Part shown: positions 4,144 through 28,968 of the stretch, in pieces
Position numbering within the stretch: position 1 is the stretch's first letter
Layout of the letters: each line of letters begins with the position of its first letter
Assembly: GCA_027310185.1 (NCBI GenBank)
Contig: DAIDBH010000018.1
Span: 96,001 to 160,000 of the forward strand
From: Thermoplasmatales archaeon
GTDB taxonomy: Archaea > Thermoplasmatota > Thermoplasmata > Thermoplasmatales > Thermoplasmataceae
DNA: 64,000 nucleotides
Direction of reading: 5' to 3'
Position numbers and translations under genes: made by a program
Notes under the pieces: generated by a model
Seen by the model: the letters and a program-made list of their open reading frames with translations, nothing else
What the model was told of the DNA's origin: nothing
Databases searched by the model: none

Positions 4144-6111
4144 TTACTGGAACTTGTATTCTGGTTTCCTTTTCTGGACGAATGCTGATATTCCCTCCAT
4201 GAAATCCTTGGAATTATATAAATTTCCCATGGCTATGGATTCCATTTCTAGGCCGACGTCCGATGGTACCTCTGATCCTTTGTATATCAACTTCTTTGAG
4301 AGGGCTGCTGCTATGGGTGATATCTTTTCGCTCAGTTCAGTCGCAAATTCCATGGTCTTCTGCTTAAGTTCCTCTTTCGGATACAGCCTTGACACTATCC
4401 CATAGTCGCGGGCAACTTCACCTGTAAATCTCTCTCCCGTTAGGATGAGATATGAAGCCCTTGACATGCCGATAAGTTTTGCAAGTTTCTGGCTTCCACT
4501 CCAACCAGGCAGCAGGCCAATTGTCGTTTCAGGAAATCCTATCACGCATTCTCTGTGTGAAACCCGTATATCACAGTTGAGGGACAGTTCAAATCCCCCA
4601 CCAAGAACATATCCTCTCATTTCTGCAATAACAATCTTTGGAATTTCAGATAGTTTCCTGAATATTCTCTGACCCTTTCTAGAATGTTCCATGAATTCCA
4701 TGAAATCAGGTATGAACTGTGTAAGCTCCGCTCCAGCAGAAAATACATTTTCATTTCCAGCAATGACAATAACAAAAACCTCCCTGTCGTTCCATAGCCT
4801 GTCAATAACTTCATTCAATTCGTCCAGGACATTTGTGTTAAGGAGATTGTTCTTTCCATTATTCAGCTCGATCCTTGCAACCTTCCCGGTTCTTATGACA
4901 TTGAGAAGTTTTCCCTCTTCCTTTATTGAATTCCTGGAAGCTGAAGCACTCTTCAGTTTTCCATCCATTGCCTCCTTCATTCTGCCATCTTCAATGGACC
5001 TGGCAGGCTTGAATACATCTGCCCCAAAATTCTCATATAACTGGGTCAATTTATCCTTCACTTCCTTGTTAGAAAGGCCCTTTGCCACGGAAACTGGCCC
5101 AAATGGCCTGTTCATCCCGAGGCAGAACCCCTTCTCAATATCGTCCGGGCTTGCCACCCCTTCTTCTATAAGCTTCACTGCCTCATTGATTTCCAGGCAG
5201 AAAACATCAAGTAACTCAACCTTCGAGGATGGATTAGCCTTAGGTATCTGTGCCTTTCCGTCTTTCCATTTGTAAAATCCCTCTCCTGTCTTAATTCCCA
5301 GCCTGTTCTCTTTGACCATCTTTAATGGTATGGTTGTCTTTCCGTATGCACTCGATAGTGTTTTGCTGTAGTAATCCAGGGAATGCAATACTGTATCAAT
5401 TCCAACGTAGTCCATAAGTTCGTAGGGTCCCATGGGTAAGGCCTGGCTTTTCGCAAATGCATCAATTGCTTCAGGAGAATCTATATTTTTCTCAAGTAGA
5501 AGAATGAAATAAAGTGACTCCGGTGCACTGATCCTGTTTACGACAAATCCTGCAGTATCCCTGAATACTTTAATTGGCTCTTTGCCAATCTTCTTTGAAA
5601 AGTTAAACACTTCCTGAAAGTTTTCTTCGGATGATTTTTCTCCCTTAATAACCTCAACAAGCTTCATCATGACTGGCGGATTGAAGAAATGCATACCAAC
5701 AAGCCTCTCCGGTCTTTTAAGCATACCCGCTATCTCTGTTATCCTTATGTTTGAGGTATTGGTCGCCAGGATCGCATCATGTTCTGCAAACTTTTCCACA
5801 GAATTGAAAACCTCTTCCTTCAGTTCCGGAATTTCAGGGACTGCCTCTATCACAAGCTGTGATCCCTTCAGCGAAGCCTCCATTTCCCTGTGGAATGTGA
5901 TTCTTTCCATCACATGGTTCTGCTCTTCTCCCTTCAGCTTTCCTGCCTTTACAAGTCTTGCTAGACTCTTTTCTATACCTGCTTTTCCCTTCTCGAGTGC
6001 ATCAGGAAAACTGTCAAACAGGTTCACCCTGAAGCCTGCCGTGGCAATAACCTGTGCTATTCCACTTCCCATCAACCCTGAGCCTATGACTGTTACCTGC
6101 TTAATTTCCAT
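4144..6111 (-). CDS. 3-hydroxyacyl-CoA dehydrogenase / enoyl-CoA hydratase fusion
   Basis: GSGLMGSG Rossmann motif, EAVPE, HFFNP and GFVVNR; C-terminal crotonase domain with FSAGAE, GGGFE and PE..IGLLPG. Confidence 0.93.
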   Translation of the reverse strand: MEIKQVTVIGSGLMGSGIAQVIATAGFRVNLFDSFPDALEKGKAGIEKSLARLVKAGKLKGEEQNHVMERITFHREMEASLKGSQLVIEAVPEIPELKEEVFNSVEKFAEHDAILATNTSNIRITEIAGMLKRPERLVGMHFFNPPVMMKLVEVIKGEKSSEENFQEVFNFSKKIGKEPIKVFRDTAGFVVNRISAPESLYFILLLEKNIDSPEAIDAFAKSQALPMGPYELMDYVGIDTVLHSLDYYSKTLSSAYGKTTIPLKMVKENRLGIKTGEGFYKWKDGKAQIPKANPSSKVELLDVFCLEINEAVKLIEEGVASPDDIEKGFCLGMNRPFGPVSVAKGLSNKEVKDKLTQLYENFGADVFKPARSIEDGRMKEAMDGKLKSASASRNSIKEEGKLLNVIRTGKVARIELNNGKNNLLNTNVLDELNEVIDRLWNDREVFVIVIAGNENVFSAGAELTQFIPDFMEFMEHSRKGQRIFRKLSEIPKIVIAEMRGYVLGGGFELSLNCDIRVSHRECVIGFPETTIGLLPGWSGSQKLAKLIGMSRASYLILTGERFTGEVARDYGIVSRLYPKEELKQKTMEFATELSEKISPIAAALSKKLIYKGSEVPSDVGLEMESIAMGNLYNSKDFMEGISAFVQKRKPEYKFQ

Positions 6112-22894: not shown

Positions 22895-23776
22895 ATGAGC
22901 ATACAGGAATATGAATGGATTGAGTGTGAGAGTAAGGAAATTAATTCTTATTGTGGACAGAAGGTAAATATACCTGTAACAATAAGAAATATTGAGAAAG
23001 AAAAGAGGACTTTTAAAATAGAATTATCAATGGAATTCATGCAGTCTGATCCCTCTATCATCTGGGAAATGGATTTTACAAACAATGATAGGGGAATACT
23101 TCAGTTCAGTCCGGATGGAGATAAAAAGTTTGACAAGAAGCTTGAACTTGAAGGTCACGCTGTCAGGGAAATGATGTTCACCATCGATTCACCCAAGGGA
23201 GGAAGTATAGGTGACAGTGTTACAGTCCGTATTAGAATAGCATCTGAGGATGGAATTCACTCTGCAAACTTCACGGACAGGATCATACTGAAACCAGTTA
23301 TCATTGCCGTGAAAACAAATGTTGGGAAGGAACTTGAGGTTGCGACAAATCTTCTGAATTCAGACGATAAGGATCTGGAGGAACGATCTGTCCTGAACCC
23401 TTCAGCAAAGAGAGAAATAATGGCAATAATGTCGCCTTATGAGTTAAGGGGATATTTTTATCTGGAAACCATGCACCCTGACAGGATACCATACCTGGGA
23501 AGGTCCATGAGAAATTTCAAGGGTGTCGTTGAAGGTGCAATAAACATAGAAGAGATACAGGAGCAACTCACACCGAAACCAGCAGTCGCAGGTCTTGAAC
23601 TCGGGTCTTTCATTGAACTTGTAAAGGGCCCATTTAAGGGAGAAAAGGCAAGAATAATGAACATCGATCACGAAAAGGAGGAAGTGACAGTTCAATTTAT
23701 AGAGTCTGCAATGCTCATTCCTGTAAAGGTCAAGGCAGAGGATATAAGGGTAATTGAAAGCGGAAAGAAACAATGA
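22895..23776 (+). CDS. spt5: Transcription elongation factor Spt5/NusG with N-terminal extension
   Basis: NGN domain (AVKTNVGKE...LRGYFYLE) and KOW domain (IELVKGPFKGEKARI), preceded by ~135 extra residues. Confidence 0.93.
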   Translation: MSIQEYEWIECESKEINSYCGQKVNIPVTIRNIEKEKRTFKIELSMEFMQSDPSIIWEMDFTNNDRGILQFSPDGDKKFDKKLELEGHAVREMMFTIDSPKGGSIGDSVTVRIRIASEDGIHSANFTDRIILKPVIIAVKTNVGKELEVATNLLNSDDKDLEERSVLNPSAKREIMAIMSPYELRGYFYLETMHPDRIPYLGRSMRNFKGVVEGAINIEEIQEQLTPKPAVAGLELGSFIELVKGPFKGEKARIMNIDHEKEEVTVQFIESAMLIPVKVKAEDIRVIESGKKQ

Positions 23777-25182
23777 GCTATAAACGGGAATCAAGGGAAA
23801 GAAACGAGGCAAGAATAAGAAATATTGAGGAAACTCTGAAGCACCCAAAAACCTTAGTCCCGGACTGTCTTGATAAGGTCATGTTCTGTCCTTTCACTGC
23901 ATATGAGAAAAAACTCACTGGCGAGGTTGATCTTTTAAAATTTGCAAAGTCCCATGATGAGTTTCTGCGGGGACTGGCTGAAACCAAGCGAGCGATTGAT
24001 GATGACGAATTATCATTCTCTGGACTGCTGAAGACACCACACGGAACTGCAACATTTTTCAAGAAGGGAGACACTGACCAGTATGTACTGGCCGGCATCC
24101 AGAATGAAAAACATGATGTGTTCAGGATGCTGAGTTTTTCACGTATTGTCTCATCAGGCAAAGCTGTAATATATTCCGCAGGTTCATATTACAGGGCAAC
24201 CTGCAGGAGTACACCCCCGGAGTCAAAGTTCATAGAGAACATTCTGAACGAGGAAAGTATTTCATATACGCGGGACGAAAGTACAGGTCTACCAGTAGTT
24301 GGAACAGGAGATGATAATACTGAATTATACATTTTTGGTTCGCCACTTTTGCTGTGTGGGTCAATGTCCAAGGTAAACACACCTGCAAAGATATTTAAGT
24401 ATATTCTCTGCAAGGATCCATTGCAGTTAATTTCATTCAACATCTCAAAACTCTCGCGATTTTCAGACAAGTCAGAAAGCACCATATTTGCAAACTACAT
24501 ATCTGGAGGAATGTCTGATTCAGATTTCTTCCAGCAGATTGTATCAAGAAGGAGAAATCTCGCAAAATCATCCGGCTTATTCCTGATTGGAACTGAAACC
24601 TTCCCGGACATCAAAGCATTTCTATCAAAAATAAGCATATCAGAAAGTGAAAGGAATGTCATTTCCGGTCTATGGCCAAAAGGGGAAGGCATCTATATTG
24701 ATGATCCAAGCCCTAGAAAACTATACGAAACTGTATGGCCAGAAATTGGGGAGCAAATAGTTGAAAAGCTTTACCCTGGAGCAACAGAAAAACACAGGGA
24801 TGTAATGAAAGGAAATCCAGTTGAAATTCTTGACCGTCTTAACAGGACTGTAAAGCTGGAGGATACAAAGGAAAGGATGAAATTAAGATCATGGTCGTTA
24901 CCATCATCACAACTTGCGGATCTTATAGCAATAGGAATAACAGAGGAACCGGAATCCCTTACAGAGTACATATCAAAAATGTCCATGAAGGAAAATGACA
25001 GCCAGGCCGTTGCTTATTGCATACAGGAAATTTACAAGCTGAACAGAAGTCAGTCATGGAAGATCTCAAGCGATGCGGTTGTCAAGGGCAGGATGATCAT
25101 GGAATATGTATCAAGAATTATAAAAGATCCATGGAACAACCCGGATGCAATATTCCAGGAGATATCAAAAATAATAAGGTGA
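23773..25182 (+). CDS. Hypothetical protein, 469 aa
   Basis: Long ORF overlapping the spt5 stop (ATGA); N-terminal PDC...CPF cysteines; no family recognised. Confidence 0.8.
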   Translation: MSYKRESRERNEARIRNIEETLKHPKTLVPDCLDKVMFCPFTAYEKKLTGEVDLLKFAKSHDEFLRGLAETKRAIDDDELSFSGLLKTPHGTATFFKKGDTDQYVLAGIQNEKHDVFRMLSFSRIVSSGKAVIYSAGSYYRATCRSTPPESKFIENILNEESISYTRDESTGLPVVGTGDDNTELYIFGSPLLLCGSMSKVNTPAKIFKYILCKDPLQLISFNISKLSRFSDKSESTIFANYISGGMSDSDFFQQIVSRRRNLAKSSGLFLIGTETFPDIKAFLSKISISESERNVISGLWPKGEGIYIDDPSPRKLYETVWPEIGEQIVEKLYPGATEKHRDVMKGNPVEILDRLNRTVKLEDTKERMKLRSWSLPSSQLADLIAIGITEEPESLTEYISKMSMKENDSQAVAYCIQEIYKLNRSQSWKISSDAVVKGRMIMEYVSRIIKDPWNNPDAIFQEISKIIR

Positions 25183-25185
25183 ATC

Positions 25186-25647
25186 ATGGCACGCCACGTT
25201 CTATCAAAGAAAGATCTTAAGATTTTTTTTGAAAAATTGAAAGAAAATAATCTGTGGGCAGATTTCTTCTCAAATTCAAACATAGAAGTTGAGGAACATA
25301 AGGGAAAGAAATGCTATTCAATTGGTGGAAGGTTCATTGCCTATGAAGAGGATCGATTTCTTCCATCCATAGACCTTCTCAACGCAATAAAGCCAGAAAT
25401 TTCATCTGTGACCGTAGATAACGGGGCAGTACCTCATATCCTCAATGGAGCCAAACTGTTTGGGAAAGGAATAACCCAGATAGGTGAAAGCATTAAACCG
25501 GGAAGCCTTGTTTATGTAAAAGACCCATCAGGCAGGTTCATTGCAGTGGGTATTGCAACAAAATCAACAGAAGAACTTAAGATATCCAAGGATGGGCCAG
25601 CTGCAGATATAATAATGTCTCCAGCCAGAAACCCATGCACACAGTGA
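25186..25647 (+). CDS. PUA-domain RNA-binding protein
   Basis: RHVLSKKD N-terminus and VTVDNGAVPHILNGAKLFGKGI PUA motif. Confidence 0.88.
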   Translation: MARHVLSKKDLKIFFEKLKENNLWADFFSNSNIEVEEHKGKKCYSIGGRFIAYEEDRFLPSIDLLNAIKPEISSVTVDNGAVPHILNGAKLFGKGITQIGESIKPGSLVYVKDPSGRFIAVGIATKSTEELKISKDGPAADIIMSPARNPCTQ

Positions 25648-25690
25648 AGGGGGCTAGAAAGGTATTTATTCAAACATTCCTTACTATGGT

Positions 25691-26149
25691 ATGGCAGAAC
25701 TATTGAAAACCGGTTCAAAAATTCCGGAGTTTGAAACAGTGGATCAGCAAGGAAATAGCATTGGATCGAAGGCAATTAAGGGAAAGCCGGCAGTTATATA
25801 CTTCTACCCGAAAGATGACACGCCTGGATGCACGGTGGAAGCGTGTGAATTTAGGGATAATATATCACAGTTCAGGGAAAAAGGCGTCAATGTATTTGGT
25901 GTATCCGTGGATGATCAAAAGTCACACAAGAAATTTGAGGAAAAATTCAACCTGAATTTTCCATTGCTCGTTGACAAAGATAAGAAGATAAGTGAGCAGT
26001 TCGGAGTCCTGGGTGAAAGGTCGGCAAAAAGAGTAACATTCATAGTGGACAGCAAGGGCATGGTGGTTCACGTTTTTCCCAAGGTTTCACCAAAGGGACA
26101 CACTGAAGAAGTAATGAATAAATTGAAGGAATTAAAATTGGTAAATTAG
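25691..26149 (+). CDS. bcp: Peroxiredoxin (BCP/PrxQ)
   Basis: YFYPKDDTPGCTVEACEFRD. Confidence 0.95.
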   Translation: MAELLKTGSKIPEFETVDQQGNSIGSKAIKGKPAVIYFYPKDDTPGCTVEACEFRDNISQFREKGVNVFGVSVDDQKSHKKFEEKFNLNFPLLVDKDKKISEQFGVLGERSAKRVTFIVDSKGMVVHVFPKVSPKGHTEEVMNKLKELKLVN

Positions 26150-26153
26150 GGAA

Positions 26154-26555
26154 TCAGGCAAGTACAAATTTATAGCCGTAATAGATTATCCCACTTTTTC
26201 CATCTTCAGCTATTTTCCTGAATACTTTTTTCACCCTTTTTCCCTCTTTTACTTCTGCGTTACCGACATCAACAAGCTGACCTGTGATCATTGGTCCCTC
26301 ATCCAGCTTGATCAGTGCCAGTACATATGGTTTCTGTCGTGAGAATGCAGGTGGTGCTTCATGAACTATGGTAAACGAAAAGATTTCCCCATCGCCTGAA
26401 AGTTCATGATCCATCATCTTCCCTATGGAATCCCTGTGACATACAGGGCAGATGTCCCTTGATGGAAAATATATCCTGCCACAATTTCCACACTTCTTTC
26501 CAAGCAATCTGTACCTGTTTGGACTTTCTCTCCACATTCTTGATAATTCTCCCAT
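26154..26555 (-). CDS. DUF35 Zn-ribbon/OB-fold scaffold protein
   Basis: CGNCG..YFP.R..CPVC, then an OB fold ending YGYKF; in an operon with thiolase and HMG-CoA synthase. Confidence 0.92.
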   Translation of the reverse strand: MGELSRMWRESPNRYRLLGKKCGNCGRIYFPSRDICPVCHRDSIGKMMDHELSGDGEIFSFTIVHEAPPAFSRQKPYVLALIKLDEGPMITGQLVDVGNAEVKEGKRVKKVFRKIAEDGKSGIIYYGYKFVLA

Positions 26556-27722
26556 TTATTCCACCCCCAGTATATGAACAACAGATGCAACACCTGAGCC
26601 TGCCATGTTATGTATCATTGCGGTCTTTGCGTCTTTTATCTGCCTCTTGTTCGCTCTTCCCTTCAACTGCAAATATGCTTCTACTGCCTGTCCAACGCCA
26701 GTTGCACCATAGGGGAATCCCTTGGCTTTCAGACCACCGGATGGATTTACCGGCAATCTGTCATTAAGAGATATACCCTCTTCAATCAGTTCCTTCGCCT
26801 TTCCCTTATCAGCAAATCCAAGATCCTCCAGAGCTATCAAACCATAAATATTATAAGAATCATGGACTTCAACGAAAGATACATCTGAGTTCTTCATGTT
26901 TGCATCCTTTAGCGCCTTTCTTGCTGCCAGTTTTGTAGGTTCTACTGTATACAGGCATTCCCTGCTATGAAGCGCAAATGGGCCCTGTGACATTGCAGAT
27001 GACAGTATCTTTACACCCTCTATGGAATTCTTCTTCACATATTCCTCAGAAGCAAGTATGACACTTGAAGCACCATCACTGAGGGGTGCACAGTCCATTA
27101 GGTTGAGGGGTTCAGCAATCAACGTAGCATTAAGAGCCTGCTGTACCGTTATTTTATTCCTGAAGTGTGCACTCTCATTGAGACTTGCATTCAGATGATC
27201 ATTTACTGATAGTTTTGCGAGGGCTTCCTTAGGTACATTGAAATCCTTCAGATACTTCCTGGCAGAAAGGGCAGCGAGAGCAGCAGGAGTTCCACCTTCG
27301 AACGCTTCCCACTCCCTGTCAAGTATGGAAGAGGTTATGTCAATGTTCTCATTTCCGTAAAGTTCCGTCATTTTCTCAGCTCCTCCCACCATTACAATAT
27401 CGTATTCTCCTGACTTAATTGCAAGATACCCTTCCCTGATGGCTGCGCCTCCAGATGCAGTTGATGCTTCAATTCTCATTGATGGGATGTACTCAGAAGA
27501 TATTCCTGCATGATCTGACATCAATGCACTCAGATGTTCCTGCCTGCTTATATCTCCACCAAGACTGTTGCTCATATAAATGGCCCCAAGATCCCTTGTC
27601 CTGATTCCTGCATCCTCCACAGCCTTTAAACCAGCTTCCACTGCAATGTCTCTCAGTGATCTGTCCCACAATTCTCCGTACTTTGCCTCTCCTGCCCCTA
27701 TTATATAAACACTCTTACTCAA
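26556..27722 (-). CDS. Archaeal acetoacetyl-CoA thiolase homologue (catalytic motifs degenerate)
   Basis: [14 protein letters not shown] and NPSGGL are present, but EASTASG, HDSY and GFPYGATG replace EAACASG, HDCF and GHP; TTG start after GGTGA. Confidence 0.9.
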
Positions 27723-28776
27723 CGTCTTCACCCAGTATTAATTTCTTCTTGAATTTGGCATACATGCCGTAGTCAAGGAATATGGTATCCTCCAGCATTT
27801 CTCTTACTGTTACTGCACCTCTTTTATGCAAATTCTCTATTTCTGAATTGACTTCAATGTGAAATGCATCAGAACCTGCCCCCGAGCCAAATGACACTGC
27901 AAGTATCCTATCCCCATCCTTCGCAACATCCAGTATGGCTGAAAGTCCAACCATCATTGCACCGGAATAGGTATTTCCTATGAGCGGAGTTAGCAATCCC
28001 TCCTTGTACTGTTTTTCTTCAAATCCCAGTAACTTTGCAGCCCTGGTAGGGAATTTACCATTTGGCTGATGAAATACTGCATAATCATAGTCTTCAGGCT
28101 TGGTTTTCATTCTCTCCATCATTTCCTTTCCAGCAGACACAACATGCTTGAAATAGGCGGGCTCGCCAGTAAATCTCTCCCCGTGTGTAGGATATGGCTG
28201 GCCTTCTCTTCTCCAGAAATCTGGAGTATCTGATGTCACAGATAAAGTTGACTTGATCTCTGCCGCAACATTTTCACTTCCTATGATCATGGCTGTTCCA
28301 CCTGCAGATGCTGAATATTCCAGTACATCACCTGGTGCACCCTGCGAAGTATCAGAACCAATTGCCATTCCTGTCTTGATCATTCCTGACTGGACCATTG
28401 CAAGTACATTCTGCATTCCTGCTGTACCTGCCTTGCACGCAAACTCGTAATCGGCAGCGAACATGTCGAACTTTGCTCCTATTGCTGAAGACACAATTGT
28501 GGCTGTTGGTTTTACTGCATAGGGATGGCTTTCTGAGCCTATATACATTGCCTCTATCTGTTCACCCTTTATACCTCCTCGCTTTAACGCTGTCCTTGCA
28601 GCCTCAACAGAGATTGTTGCTACATCCTCATCAGGAGAAGGAACAGATTTACTCAGAATGTAGATACCATTCTTTATGTTCTCCGGATCCTCTCCCCAGA
28701 TCCTGGCTATTTCGTCTGGTTTGATCCTGTATTTTGGGATATAACTCCCGTAACTTACTATTCCACTTTTTCCCAT
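27715..28776 (-). CDS. Hydroxymethylglutaryl-CoA synthase (archaeal type)
   Basis: [19 protein letters not shown] (catalytic Cys), [23 protein letters not shown]. Confidence 0.95.
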
Positions 28777-28968
28777 ATCTGGGGTTAAAATTTCAAACAT
28801 ATTTAAAAATTGTTAAATATGGCTTCGACAAATGACTAATCAAAAGTTCATAAATTCAAAAAATAAGGAGAAAATCTGCAAACATGACATGAACTGTAAG
28901 CAAAAACAATTAAAGAATAATATCAATAAAAAATAAATAGATATAATATCTATCTCACTGGGAATAAA

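Follow-up and report, generated by a model that had tools for sequence, protein, structure and literature searches.

[quoted passage not shown] In the solved structure, as summarised in PMC12960953 and PMC12329534, the DUF35 protein ties the thiolase to HMGS, and one CoA-binding chamber at the interface is common to both enzymes. The same two papers present the complex as the archaeal way past the unfavourable thiolase step, with acetoacetyl-CoA channelled straight into HMGS. An ACAT/HMGS-DUF35 complex of Pseudomonas fluorescens, as outlined in section 10 of PMC12960953, contains a dead HMGS unit and a live ACAT unit and carries out thiolysis only. According to PMC12329534, the Ltp2/Sal steroid side-chain aldolases (PDB ids: 6ok1 and 9myr) have a thiolase fold and a DUF35 partner and have lost the nucleophilic Cys; their catalytic Tyr is the first residue of a YD[HC][FY] motif. 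The PhlC/MucB Friedel-Crafts acetyltransferase subunits, by the account in section 10 of PMC12960953, keep the CxS Cys and GHx and have lost HDxF. Active thiolase/DUF35 pairs are described from Sulfolobus fatty-acid synthesis (in bioRxiv 10.1101/2024.07.05.601840).

The window, a 64,000-nucleotide stretch of a Cuniculiplasma genome (G000), encodes the same three proteins as the methanococcal complex, each with its 6esq counterpart as best PDB sequence match. The HMGS catalytic tetrad and the DUF35 zinc cysteines are kept here too. The thiolase subunit, unlike that of the methanococcal complex, carries Thr91 in place of the nucleophilic Cys, Phe339 in place of the GHP His and a Ser in place of the HDCF Cys. 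Because the nucleophilic Cys and the GHP His are missing, the channelled two-step reaction from acetyl-CoA cannot run as it does in the methanococcal complex. A literature search found no description of operon thiolases lacking the Cys; Hoshino and Gaucher 2018 reportedly discuss, in their supplements, AACT homologues without the catalytic motif, which may bear on the matter.

The operon and the catalytic residues of its thiolase-like subunit

HMGS occupies 27715..28800 on the minus strand (361 aa counted from the ATG at 28800); Met9 at 28776 is the more likely start, since the alignment with 6esq_I begins there. It is the sole copy in the genome, where the search returned a single match, and its profile scores are 562 bits for NF003274 (cut-off 244) and 550 bits for TIGR00748. 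In the alignment with 6esq_I (E 1.5e-139), E82, C114, H238 and N270 are paired with identical residues, and the resulting E-C-H-N tetrad (E90, C122, H244 and N276) is unchanged in 38 of 38 sequences. The thiolase-like gene (26556..27731, minus strand, GTG start, 391 aa) lies intact between HMGS and DUF35 in one minus-strand operon. Its start overlaps the 3' end of HMGS (27715..27731, minus strand, read from the sequence): the HMGS stop codon TAA is at 27715-27717 and the thiolase start codon is GTG (27729-27731) or TTG (27720-27722), which gives an overlap of 17 or 8 nt. The DUF35 gene (26154..26555, minus strand) starts with an ATG at 26555, directly after the thiolase TAA, and encodes a zinc ribbon and an OB fold (domains zf-ChsH2 and OB_ChsH2_C). 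Its product matches 6esq_E with an E-value of 2.5e-36 in the PDB sequence search, and Cys22, Cys25, Cys36 and Cys39 are unchanged in 38 of 38 sequences. The reading frames, overlaps and alignments bear out an earlier note on this DNA, which had described the thiolase of the operon as full length and translationally coupled, with the Glu/Cys/His residues of HMGS and four Cys of DUF35 retained. The HMGS-thiolase-DUF35 order and spacing are the same in relatives' loci, and the order is kept in Thermoplasmata loci.

Two RNA-library runs of one sample hold this stretch, and both are without cover at 28775-28901, just upstream of HMGS. An RNA-library contig from this other data set is identical to 25600-28764 (0 differences); the sample is possibly the window's own source. 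Such contigs, in which DNA carry-over is possible, give no more than a weak hint of transcription.

The catalytic positions were read from a phmmer search against the PDB, in which residues 7-388 of the thiolase-like protein align, at E 1.8e-86, with 6esq_A, the acetoacetyl-CoA thiolase of M. thermolithotrophicus. At the catalytic sites 6esq_A reads EAACASG, EVHDCFAI and KAAGHALGATG. In the first, the nucleophilic Cys corresponds to Thr91 (27459..27461, minus strand) within E-A-S-T-A-S-G, where E88, A92 and S93 serve as landmarks for numbering. In the last, the histidine position holds Phe339 (26715..26717, minus strand), flanked by G338 and P340. The remaining motif, His290-Asp291-Ser292 (26856..26864, minus strand), reads HD-S-Y for HD-C-F: H290 and D291 are kept, the Cys position is Ser (codon at 26856-26858, counted from the start at 27731), and Phe is replaced with Tyr. 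All three codons are exactly where the earlier note had placed them.

Its statement that all three catalytic fingerprints are lost stands for the nucleophilic Cys and the GHP His. It does not stand for the HDxF motif, in which the His is kept and the Cys is variable. Six of the seven Cys-keeping Thermoplasmata enzymes and the P. furiosus thiolase (PDB id: 7yvy) read HDAF rather than HDCF, so the Cys of this motif is not a firm fingerprint. On this alignment, the losses amount to two firm catalytic residues and one variable position.

The rest of the protein is that of a thiolase. The domain search returns Thiolase_N and Thiolase_C_1, and the subfamily model PRK06064 is passed with 475.5 bits (cut-off 420), while the equivalog NF053570 AcCoTHIOL_METTL is not (410.1 bits against a cut-off of 600). 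The AlphaFold2 model has a pLDDT of 92.6 and superimposes on 6esq_A in Foldseek with a TM-score of 0.94 and an rmsd of 1.4; as modelled, the thiolase fold is intact. The third-best PDB match (E 1.6e-63) is ST0096, a thiolase-like protein of Sulfolobus tokodaii (PDB id: 4yzo), for which a literature search found a passing mention in PMC6392133 and no dedicated paper. Like the protein described here, ST0096 has a nucleophile motif without Cys (N-T-S-G-S-G-G), and the two folds agree with a TM-score of up to 0.85 normalised to the query. Unlike it, ST0096 still has the His of GHP, and its version of the HDxF motif begins HDM.

Age of the loss and selection on the gene

The combination of Ser-Thr at the nucleophile site, HDS[YF] and G[FNYD]P is present in all 22 same-family genomes that have an orthologue, so the close relatives do not keep the Cys and the GHP His either. 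All 27 family sequences examined have Thr91, the codon being ACT in 8, ACA in 7, ACC in 8 and ACG in 4. Ser292 (27/27, all four TCN codons) and Ser90 (27/27) are likewise kept through all four synonymous codons, and His290 is found in 26 of the 27. Position 339 drifts (F 15, N 10, Y 1, D 1). Among named homologues, those of T. acidophilum, T. volcanium, Ferroplasma and Thermogymnomonas have Thr at the nucleophile site, and that of the MAG B_DKE has Ser; the T. acidophilum and T. volcanium proteins also lack His290 and read NDSY. Cys and His are both present in the Cys-keeping homologues of Thermoplasmata, Aenigmarchaeota and Bathyarchaeia.

By the NG86 method, median dN/dS values are 0.039 (thiolase), 0.034 (HMGS) and 0.052 (DUF35). 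These values come from 6, 6 and 9 unsaturated pairs, respectively, out of 231; synonymous sites are saturated in 225 of the family pairs for the thiolase and HMGS and in 222 for DUF35, and the estimate thus rests on six to nine close pairs. Among the 90 columns that Cys-keeping enzymes conserve, 57 have retained their residue in 90% or more of the family. Fifteen columns fixed in Cys-keeping enzymes have been replaced, with less than 20% of the family keeping the original residue; some of these are fixed to one new residue, others are variable, and several lie around the old active-site motifs. The ratio of thiolase to HMGS divergence is only moderately raised: it is 1.4-1.8 in clades without the Cys and 1.10-1.15 in those that keep it.

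Judged by these comparisons, the loss of Cys and His is old and family-wide, and the gene has remained under purifying selection about as strong as that on HMGS, as both dN/dS and codon usage at Thr91 and Ser292 indicate. The earlier note's proposal that the thiolase is retained as a pseudoenzyme gains support from this, and the orthologue and dN/dS comparisons that it had suggested agree with it.

Another explanation considered was that the gene had decayed recently or that the three codons were wrong through sequencing or assembly. Nothing was found in its favour: the frame is open, the same residues occur in the 22 family genomes and in genomes of independent isolates, dN/dS is about 0.04, and the RNA-library contig agrees with the window at every position it covers. 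The conservation data refute this explanation, and the probability left to it is negligible.

Classical thiolases across the class Thermoplasmata

The earlier note had reported the trait from this one genome. It is indeed there, but its scope was understated: it extends over almost all of the class Thermoplasmata, Thermoplasma acidophilum among them. Of 37 relatives across the class, 31 have an operon thiolase without the Cys. Another 22 families, sampled with 40 genomes, gave the same result for every genome, and in all 40 the Cys-less gene is part of the operon. The replacement residue differs (Thr, Ser, Gly, Asn, Asp or Glu), Gly being found in most of the class, and the GHP position is occupied by H, Y, N, Q, D, R or F. 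In 7 of the 40 class genomes a Cys is located two residues downstream (G-A-C-G), and in these lineages the nucleophile may have shifted to it. On the HMGS tree, at least three changes between Cys and non-Cys are required, and the gene was kept each time.

A classical, bacterial-type thiolase scoring over the TIGR01930 cut-off is encoded by all 31 relatives with a Cys-less operon thiolase and by none of the six with a Cys-keeping one; none of the seven genomes known to have a Cys-keeping operon thiolase contains one. In the class sample it is present in 196 of 201 genomes (194 of 199 without the unpublished G121 and G220). The five genomes without it are four f6 genomes and G046, the latter with an operon thiolase that reads ENACASG/HDCF/GHP. 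The f6 genome G036 (99% complete, 200 contigs) is uninformative on this pattern, since neither a thiolase nor HMGS was found in it. Each of five Methanomassiliicoccales genomes has exactly one classical thiolase together with the Cys-less one. Among the genomes examined, a missing Cys in the operon thiolase always goes together with a classical thiolase, both as read from sequence. What this complementary pattern shows is a correlation, drawn from related genomes with few independent events.

G000 itself has three TIGR01930 matches over the cut-off, all with intact Cys, NEAF, GHP and CxG, in line with the earlier suggestion that acetoacetyl-CoA may come from another thiolase. One of them (G000:C4:81064-82203) adjoins a 3-hydroxyacyl-CoA dehydrogenase gene. 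In G028, a classical thiolase and a 3-hydroxyacyl-CoA dehydrogenase are divergent from HMGS, 115 bp from its start, and by their coordinates G032 and G035 have the same adjacency. The classical thiolases have beta-oxidation genes as neighbours, and it may be that they work in that pathway alone. A fused HAD/ECH gene at 4144-6111, which the earlier note had named as an example of beta-oxidation, is real.

Could the operon protein still be an acetoacetyl-CoA thiolase in which Thr91 or Cys214 (part of a conserved M-D-C motif) is the nucleophile and His290 the base? Thr91 is invariant in the family and Cys214 nearly so, and the HDxF His is the residue that, according to section 10 of PMC12960953, is essential in the archaeal complex, where its mutation abolishes activity. 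However, T. acidophilum and T. volcanium are without His290 itself, no GHP His is left and its position drifts among F, N, Y and D, and in most of the class the nucleophile has been replaced by Gly. Cys214 is no replacement nucleophile, since Cys-keeping enzymes conserve it to the same degree. The hydroxyl group of Thr is unable to form the thioester intermediate of thiolase chemistry. With a classical thiolase in every Cys-less genome examined as well, continued thiolase activity is very improbable.

Role of the retained subunit

The thiolase-like protein is probably a non-catalytic structural or CoA-binding subunit, with its catalysis taken over by classical thiolases. The disarmed thiolase would be retained in the HMGS/thiolase/DUF35 complex as a body that still supplies the interface and its part of the CoA site, and HMGS would depend on that body for assembly, stability or substrate binding. 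The condensation of two acetyl-CoA molecules would have moved to free classical thiolases encoded elsewhere; the shared site would take up free acetoacetyl-CoA, whose reaction would follow on HMGS. From the sequences and models we infer complex formation, absence of thiolase activity and CoA binding, and also the identity of the feeding thiolase, for which the gene product of G000:C4:81064-82203 would be the best candidate. Beta-oxidation is another possible source of acetoacetyl-CoA. A complex prediction with HMGS, DUF35 and, as partner, the thiolase-like chain scored 0.90, and a control in which HMGS was replaced scored 0.79; the two scores together count neither for nor against binding. The P. 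fluorescens complex has the same architecture and also retains a thiolase-superfamily subunit devoid of catalytic residues, but it is a mirror image: here the ACAT-type unit is disarmed, HMGS is intact and the context is primary lipid metabolism.

Ser90-Thr91 and Ser292 are themselves invariant and the constraint on the protein is nearly as strong as that on HMGS; a pocket that is still used therefore fits better than an inert scaffold. Along these lines, the remodelled pocket (Ser90-Thr91, His290, Ser292-Tyr293 and Tyr341) might bind or act on acyl-CoA. It might receive acetoacetyl-CoA and pass it to HMGS, or it might catalyse an acyl transfer, a hydrolysis or a reaction of the aldol type, in the manner of other thiolase/DUF35 pairs that have been repurposed. 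The three residues kept through all synonymous codons in the 27 sequences, a dN/dS as low as that of HMGS and the fifteen replaced columns, several of them near the old active-site motifs, speak for such a role. There are also precedents: PMC12329534 and section 10 of PMC12960953 describe the Ltp2/Sal aldolases and PhlC/MucB acylases as thiolase folds with DUF35 partners and rewired sites. Both 6ok1 and 9myr are structural matches of the thiolase-like protein (TM-score 0.85, identity 21-23%). The motifs of these enzymes, however, are absent from it. Where Ltp2/Sal have their catalytic Tyr, the protein has His290 (H-D-S-Y), and these aldolases belong to steroid degradation and not to an HMGS context. 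Relative to PhlC/MucB the pattern is the opposite one, the Cys and GHx His being lost and HD kept. Furthermore, the nucleophile and GHP positions are so varied that the class has no common catalytic set, and HMGS is intact and present in a single copy, so the operon still serves HMG-CoA synthesis. New chemistry or ligand handling of this kind is therefore rather unlikely.

A related and only slightly less doubtful possibility is that, after an early takeover by classical thiolases in Thermoplasmata, the old pocket (invariant Ser90-Thr91 and Ser292-Tyr293, aromatic residues at 339/341) was rebuilt as a receptor or gate for acetoacetyl-CoA or CoA. It might deliver the scarce free intermediate to HMGS via the shared CoA chamber, or catalyse a new step.

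A disarmed thiolase subunit in nearly all Thermoplasmata would mean that the channelling model fails for a major archaeal class, which includes the gut methanogens of Methanomassiliicoccales as well as Thermoplasma acidophilum, the organism in which a variant mevalonate pathway was worked out. The name acetyl-CoA acetyltransferase, which is carried by existing homologue records, would then be wrong for this gene, and metabolic models should use a classical thiolase for the first step. A protein that was kept while its chemistry was lost repeatedly is also a clean natural experiment for asking what HMGS gains from the subunit. Should the receptor or gate proposal prove true, isoprenoid lipid synthesis in a whole archaeal class, its model species included, would start with a complex that uses a ligand-handling pseudo-thiolase.

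The operon and its thiolase-fold product

The operon comprises three tightly packed genes on the minus strand, encoding an HMG-CoA synthase (HMGS, 27715–28800), a thiolase-fold protein (26556–27731) and a DUF35 protein (26154–26555). The HMGS stop codon (TAA, 27715–27717) falls within the 5′ end of the thiolase gene, which starts at GTG 27729–27731 or TTG 27720–27722, and the thiolase TAA is followed immediately by the DUF35 ATG. A 469-residue ORF two genes away (23773–25182, plus strand) matches no Pfam family at E 0.001. In a PDB search, the top solved-structure match of each operon product is the matching chain of the M. thermolithotrophicus thiolase/HMGS/DUF35 complex (thiolase-like protein, 6esq_A, E 1.8e-86; HMGS, 6esq_I, E 1.5e-139; DUF35 protein, 6esq_E, E 2.5e-36). 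HMGS residues Glu90, Cys122, His244 and Asn276 align with E82/C114/H238/N270 of 6esq_I and show no variation in 38 of 38 aligned sequences; the same is true of the four zinc-ribbon cysteines of the DUF35 protein (38/38). This bears out an earlier note on the retention of the HMGS Glu/Cys/His and the four DUF35 cysteines.

The thiolase-like protein reads E-A-S-T-A-S-G where 6esq_A has the nucleophile motif E-A-A-C-A-S-G, H-D-S-Y for H-D-C-F, and G-F-P-Y-G-A-T-G for G-H-A-L-G-A-T-G. The replaced residues are Thr91, Ser292 and Phe339 (numbering of the orthologue alignment), and their codons lie exactly where the earlier note had placed them (27459–27461, 26856–26858 and 26715–26717). Of the three catalytic fingerprints that it considered lost, the nucleophilic Cys and the GHP His are indeed gone, but the HDCF cysteine is not a firm fingerprint. 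It varies even among enzymes that must be active, with HDAF found in six of seven Thermoplasmata enzymes that keep the nucleophilic Cys and in P. furiosus thiolase 7yvy. Mutation has shown the histidine of HDxF to be essential (PMC12960953, section 10), and it is kept here as His290. In NCBIfam, the protein clears only the threshold of the broad subfamily "thiolase domain-containing protein" (475 bits; 420 required); it falls short of the one set for the equivalog that is based on the methanococcal enzyme (410 bits; 600 required). Its AlphaFold model (mean pLDDT 92.6) superimposes on 6esq_A with a TM score of 0.94 and an rmsd of 1.4 Å; the predicted fold is undegraded.

Age of the loss and selection on the gene

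The orthologue was read in 37 of the 41 nearest genomes; G004 and G036 gave no match, G006 matched only through a paralogue and G024 carries three in-frame stops. The G024 copy (L032, contig C9), with TGA, TAG and TAA in frame in a 50% complete genome, may be a broken gene or a product of poor assembly. In all 22 genomes of the window's family the nucleophile site reads Ser-Thr, the HDxF site HDS[YF] (HNSY in two, NDSY in one) and the GHP site G[FNYD]P. Ser occupies the nucleophile site in families f5 (four genomes, with HDA and GHP) and f3 (five genomes, with HDSY and G[YN]P), and Cys is kept in six genomes of f2, f4, f6 and f7, with HDAF and GHP. Named homologues from cultured species are 63–66% identical to the window protein; Ferroplasma reads ESSTASGA, HDSF and GDP, Thermogymnomonas acidicola EASTASGA, HDSY and GNP, and the three motifs of Thermoplasma acidophilum and T. 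volcanium are identical to each other.

Median pairwise dN/dS within the family (Nei-Gojobori; unsaturated pairs only, 6, 6 and 9 of 231, respectively) is 0.039 for the thiolase-like gene, 0.034 for HMGS and 0.052 for DUF35. The two checks proposed in the earlier note, on close relatives (22 of 22 without Cys) and on dN/dS (purifying selection), thus exclude recent decay or sequencing error, since family genomes and cultured species share the lost residues and dN/dS is low. The loss of Cys is old and the gene is under selection. The thiolase/HMGS protein divergence ratio, 1.4–1.8 in Cys-less and 1.10–1.15 in Cys-keeping clades, amounts to moderate relaxation rather than free decay. Among the 90 alignment columns that are conserved across 21 Cys-keeping sequences, 57 hold their residue in 90% or more of 24 family sequences, and in 15 the original residue occurs in less than 20% of the family, some being fixed to one new residue and others variable. 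Among these 15 are the nucleophile position with its neighbour, the position that follows Ser292, and residues 339 and 341 (numbering of the window protein).

Thr91 is unchanged in 27 of 27 sequences through all four ACN codons, Ser90 and Ser292 are likewise unchanged across synonymous codons (27/27), and position 339 varies (F 15, N 10, Y 1, D 1). The invariance of Ser90-Thr91 and Ser292, together with low dN/dS, could indicate that the pocket was rebuilt to handle a ligand or to take on a new catalytic role, but this is unlikely, as a polar set common to the class is absent and the protein does not show the motifs of Ltp2/Sal aldolases or PhlC/MucB (PMC12329534; PMC12960953).

In all 40 genomes sampled from 22 further families of Thermoplasmata (f20, f23, f25 and f32 lie outside this sample), the HMGS-thiolase-DUF35 order is found and Cys is absent. 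Gly takes its place in most cases, and Ser, Asn, Asp or Glu in others; named Methanomassiliicoccaceae and Methanomethylophilaceae MAGs read EAGGASGG. A working thiolase with Thr91 or Cys214 as nucleophile is unlikely, given Gly at this position in most of the class, the loss of His290 too in Thermoplasma, and a Cys214 just as conserved in Cys-keeping enzymes. Outgroup Aenigmarchaeota and Bathyarchaeia loci retain ACAS, HDCF and GHP, and a quick tree built on the HMGS of 70 operons, its deep forks unresolved, requires at least three Cys/non-Cys changes. Seven of the 40 operon thiolases (L142, L143, L145, L147, L150, L157 and L159; families f22, f24, f27, f29 and f33) read G-A-C-G; here a Cys, perhaps a displaced nucleophile, stands two residues downstream of the position where the original one was lost.

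Classical thiolases and possible sources of acetoacetyl-CoA

The main new result is the complementary distribution of Cys-keeping operon thiolases and classical (TIGR01930-type) thiolases outside the operon. A classical thiolase above cut-off is present in 34 of the 41 relatives, comprising all of f1 (the window's family), f3 and f5, and in none of the seven genomes of f2, f4, f6 and f7; it accompanies 31 of 31 Cys-less operon thiolases and none of six Cys-keeping ones. Because the genomes are related, this pattern represents few independent events. Class-wide, 196 of 201 genomes have one (194 of 199 without the unpublished G121 and G220); the exceptions are four f6 genomes and G046 (f8), whose operon thiolase has the full canonical set of motifs (ENACASG, HDCF, GHPVGA). 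Five Methanomassiliicoccales genomes have exactly two Thiolase_N matches each, one classical and one Cys-less operon copy. In G028 (f5; L120, contig C20, 4302–6329), genes for a classical thiolase and for 3-hydroxyacyl-CoA dehydrogenase are transcribed divergently from the operon, separated from the HMGS start by 115 bp, and coordinates place the same pair beside the operon in G032:C13 and G035:C13. G036 (f6, 99% complete, 200 contigs) yielded no HMGS, operon thiolase or classical thiolase in protein, profile and family queries; its operon is either unassembled or genuinely missing.

The window's own genome (1.88 Mb, 19 contigs, 99.5% complete), inventoried as the earlier note had suggested, encodes three classical thiolases above the TIGR01930 cut-off, all with the nucleophilic Cys, NEAF, GHP and the CxG cysteine. 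The one at C4:81064–82203, followed by a 3-hydroxyacyl-CoA dehydrogenase gene, is closest to the single classical thiolase of Methanomassiliicoccales and the operon-side thiolase of G028 (42–44% identity; 33–37% for the other two). The dehydrogenase/hydratase that the earlier note saw at 4144–6111 (minus strand) is real, a 655-residue fusion with 3HCDH_N, 3HCDH and ECH_1 domains. These classical thiolases and the fused enzyme are possible sources of acetoacetyl-CoA. Outside the window, the same genome carries a second SCP-x-type thiolase paralogue (L002, C12:126825–128060; 433-residue open frame, 31–34% identity) that lacks the nucleophilic Cys (E-G-G-G-A-T-G-G) but retains both HDAY and GHPVGATG. 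A longer DUF35 protein of its own (194-residue open frame) comes next, and the same pair occurs in relatives.

A probable non-catalytic partner of HMGS

The simplest account, and probably the right one, is non-orthologous displacement, with the operon thiolase as a non-catalytic partner of HMGS. With a free classical thiolase available, the operon copy would have shed its catalytic residues, more than once, and the Cys-less protein would have been retained after each loss because, we propose, HMGS needs its partner. In the cited sections on known complexes, DUF35 is the bridge joining thiolase and HMGS, and a CoA-binding chamber is fused at the thiolase/HMGS interface (PMC12960953, sections 9 and 12; PMC12329534, section 11). 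The thiolase body would still supply this interface and half of the CoA site, which would explain strong constraint without catalysis. A characterised bacterial complex has the mirror arrangement, in which the HMGS unit is dead and the thiolase unit live (PMC12960953, section 10). The earlier note's pseudoenzyme reading thus gains comparative support from the old loss, low dN/dS and complementary classical thiolases.

Full-text literature searches turned up no account of HMGS operons with a Cys-less thiolase. According to Hoshino and Gaucher 2018 (PMC6107057, section 10), the catalytic motif is missing from many archaeal AACT homologues that fall outside the early-branching clades, and these proteins may serve other functions. 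A solved thiolase-like homologue, S. tokodaii ST0096 (PDB 4yzo), for which no paper was found in the full-text literature, aligns as T-S-G-S-G-G and, like the window protein, has no Cys there; unlike it, ST0096 keeps GHP. The Cys-less operon thiolase marks a new variant form of the known HMGS/thiolase/DUF35 complex. The trait spans nearly the whole class, model organisms included, and is open to direct testing.
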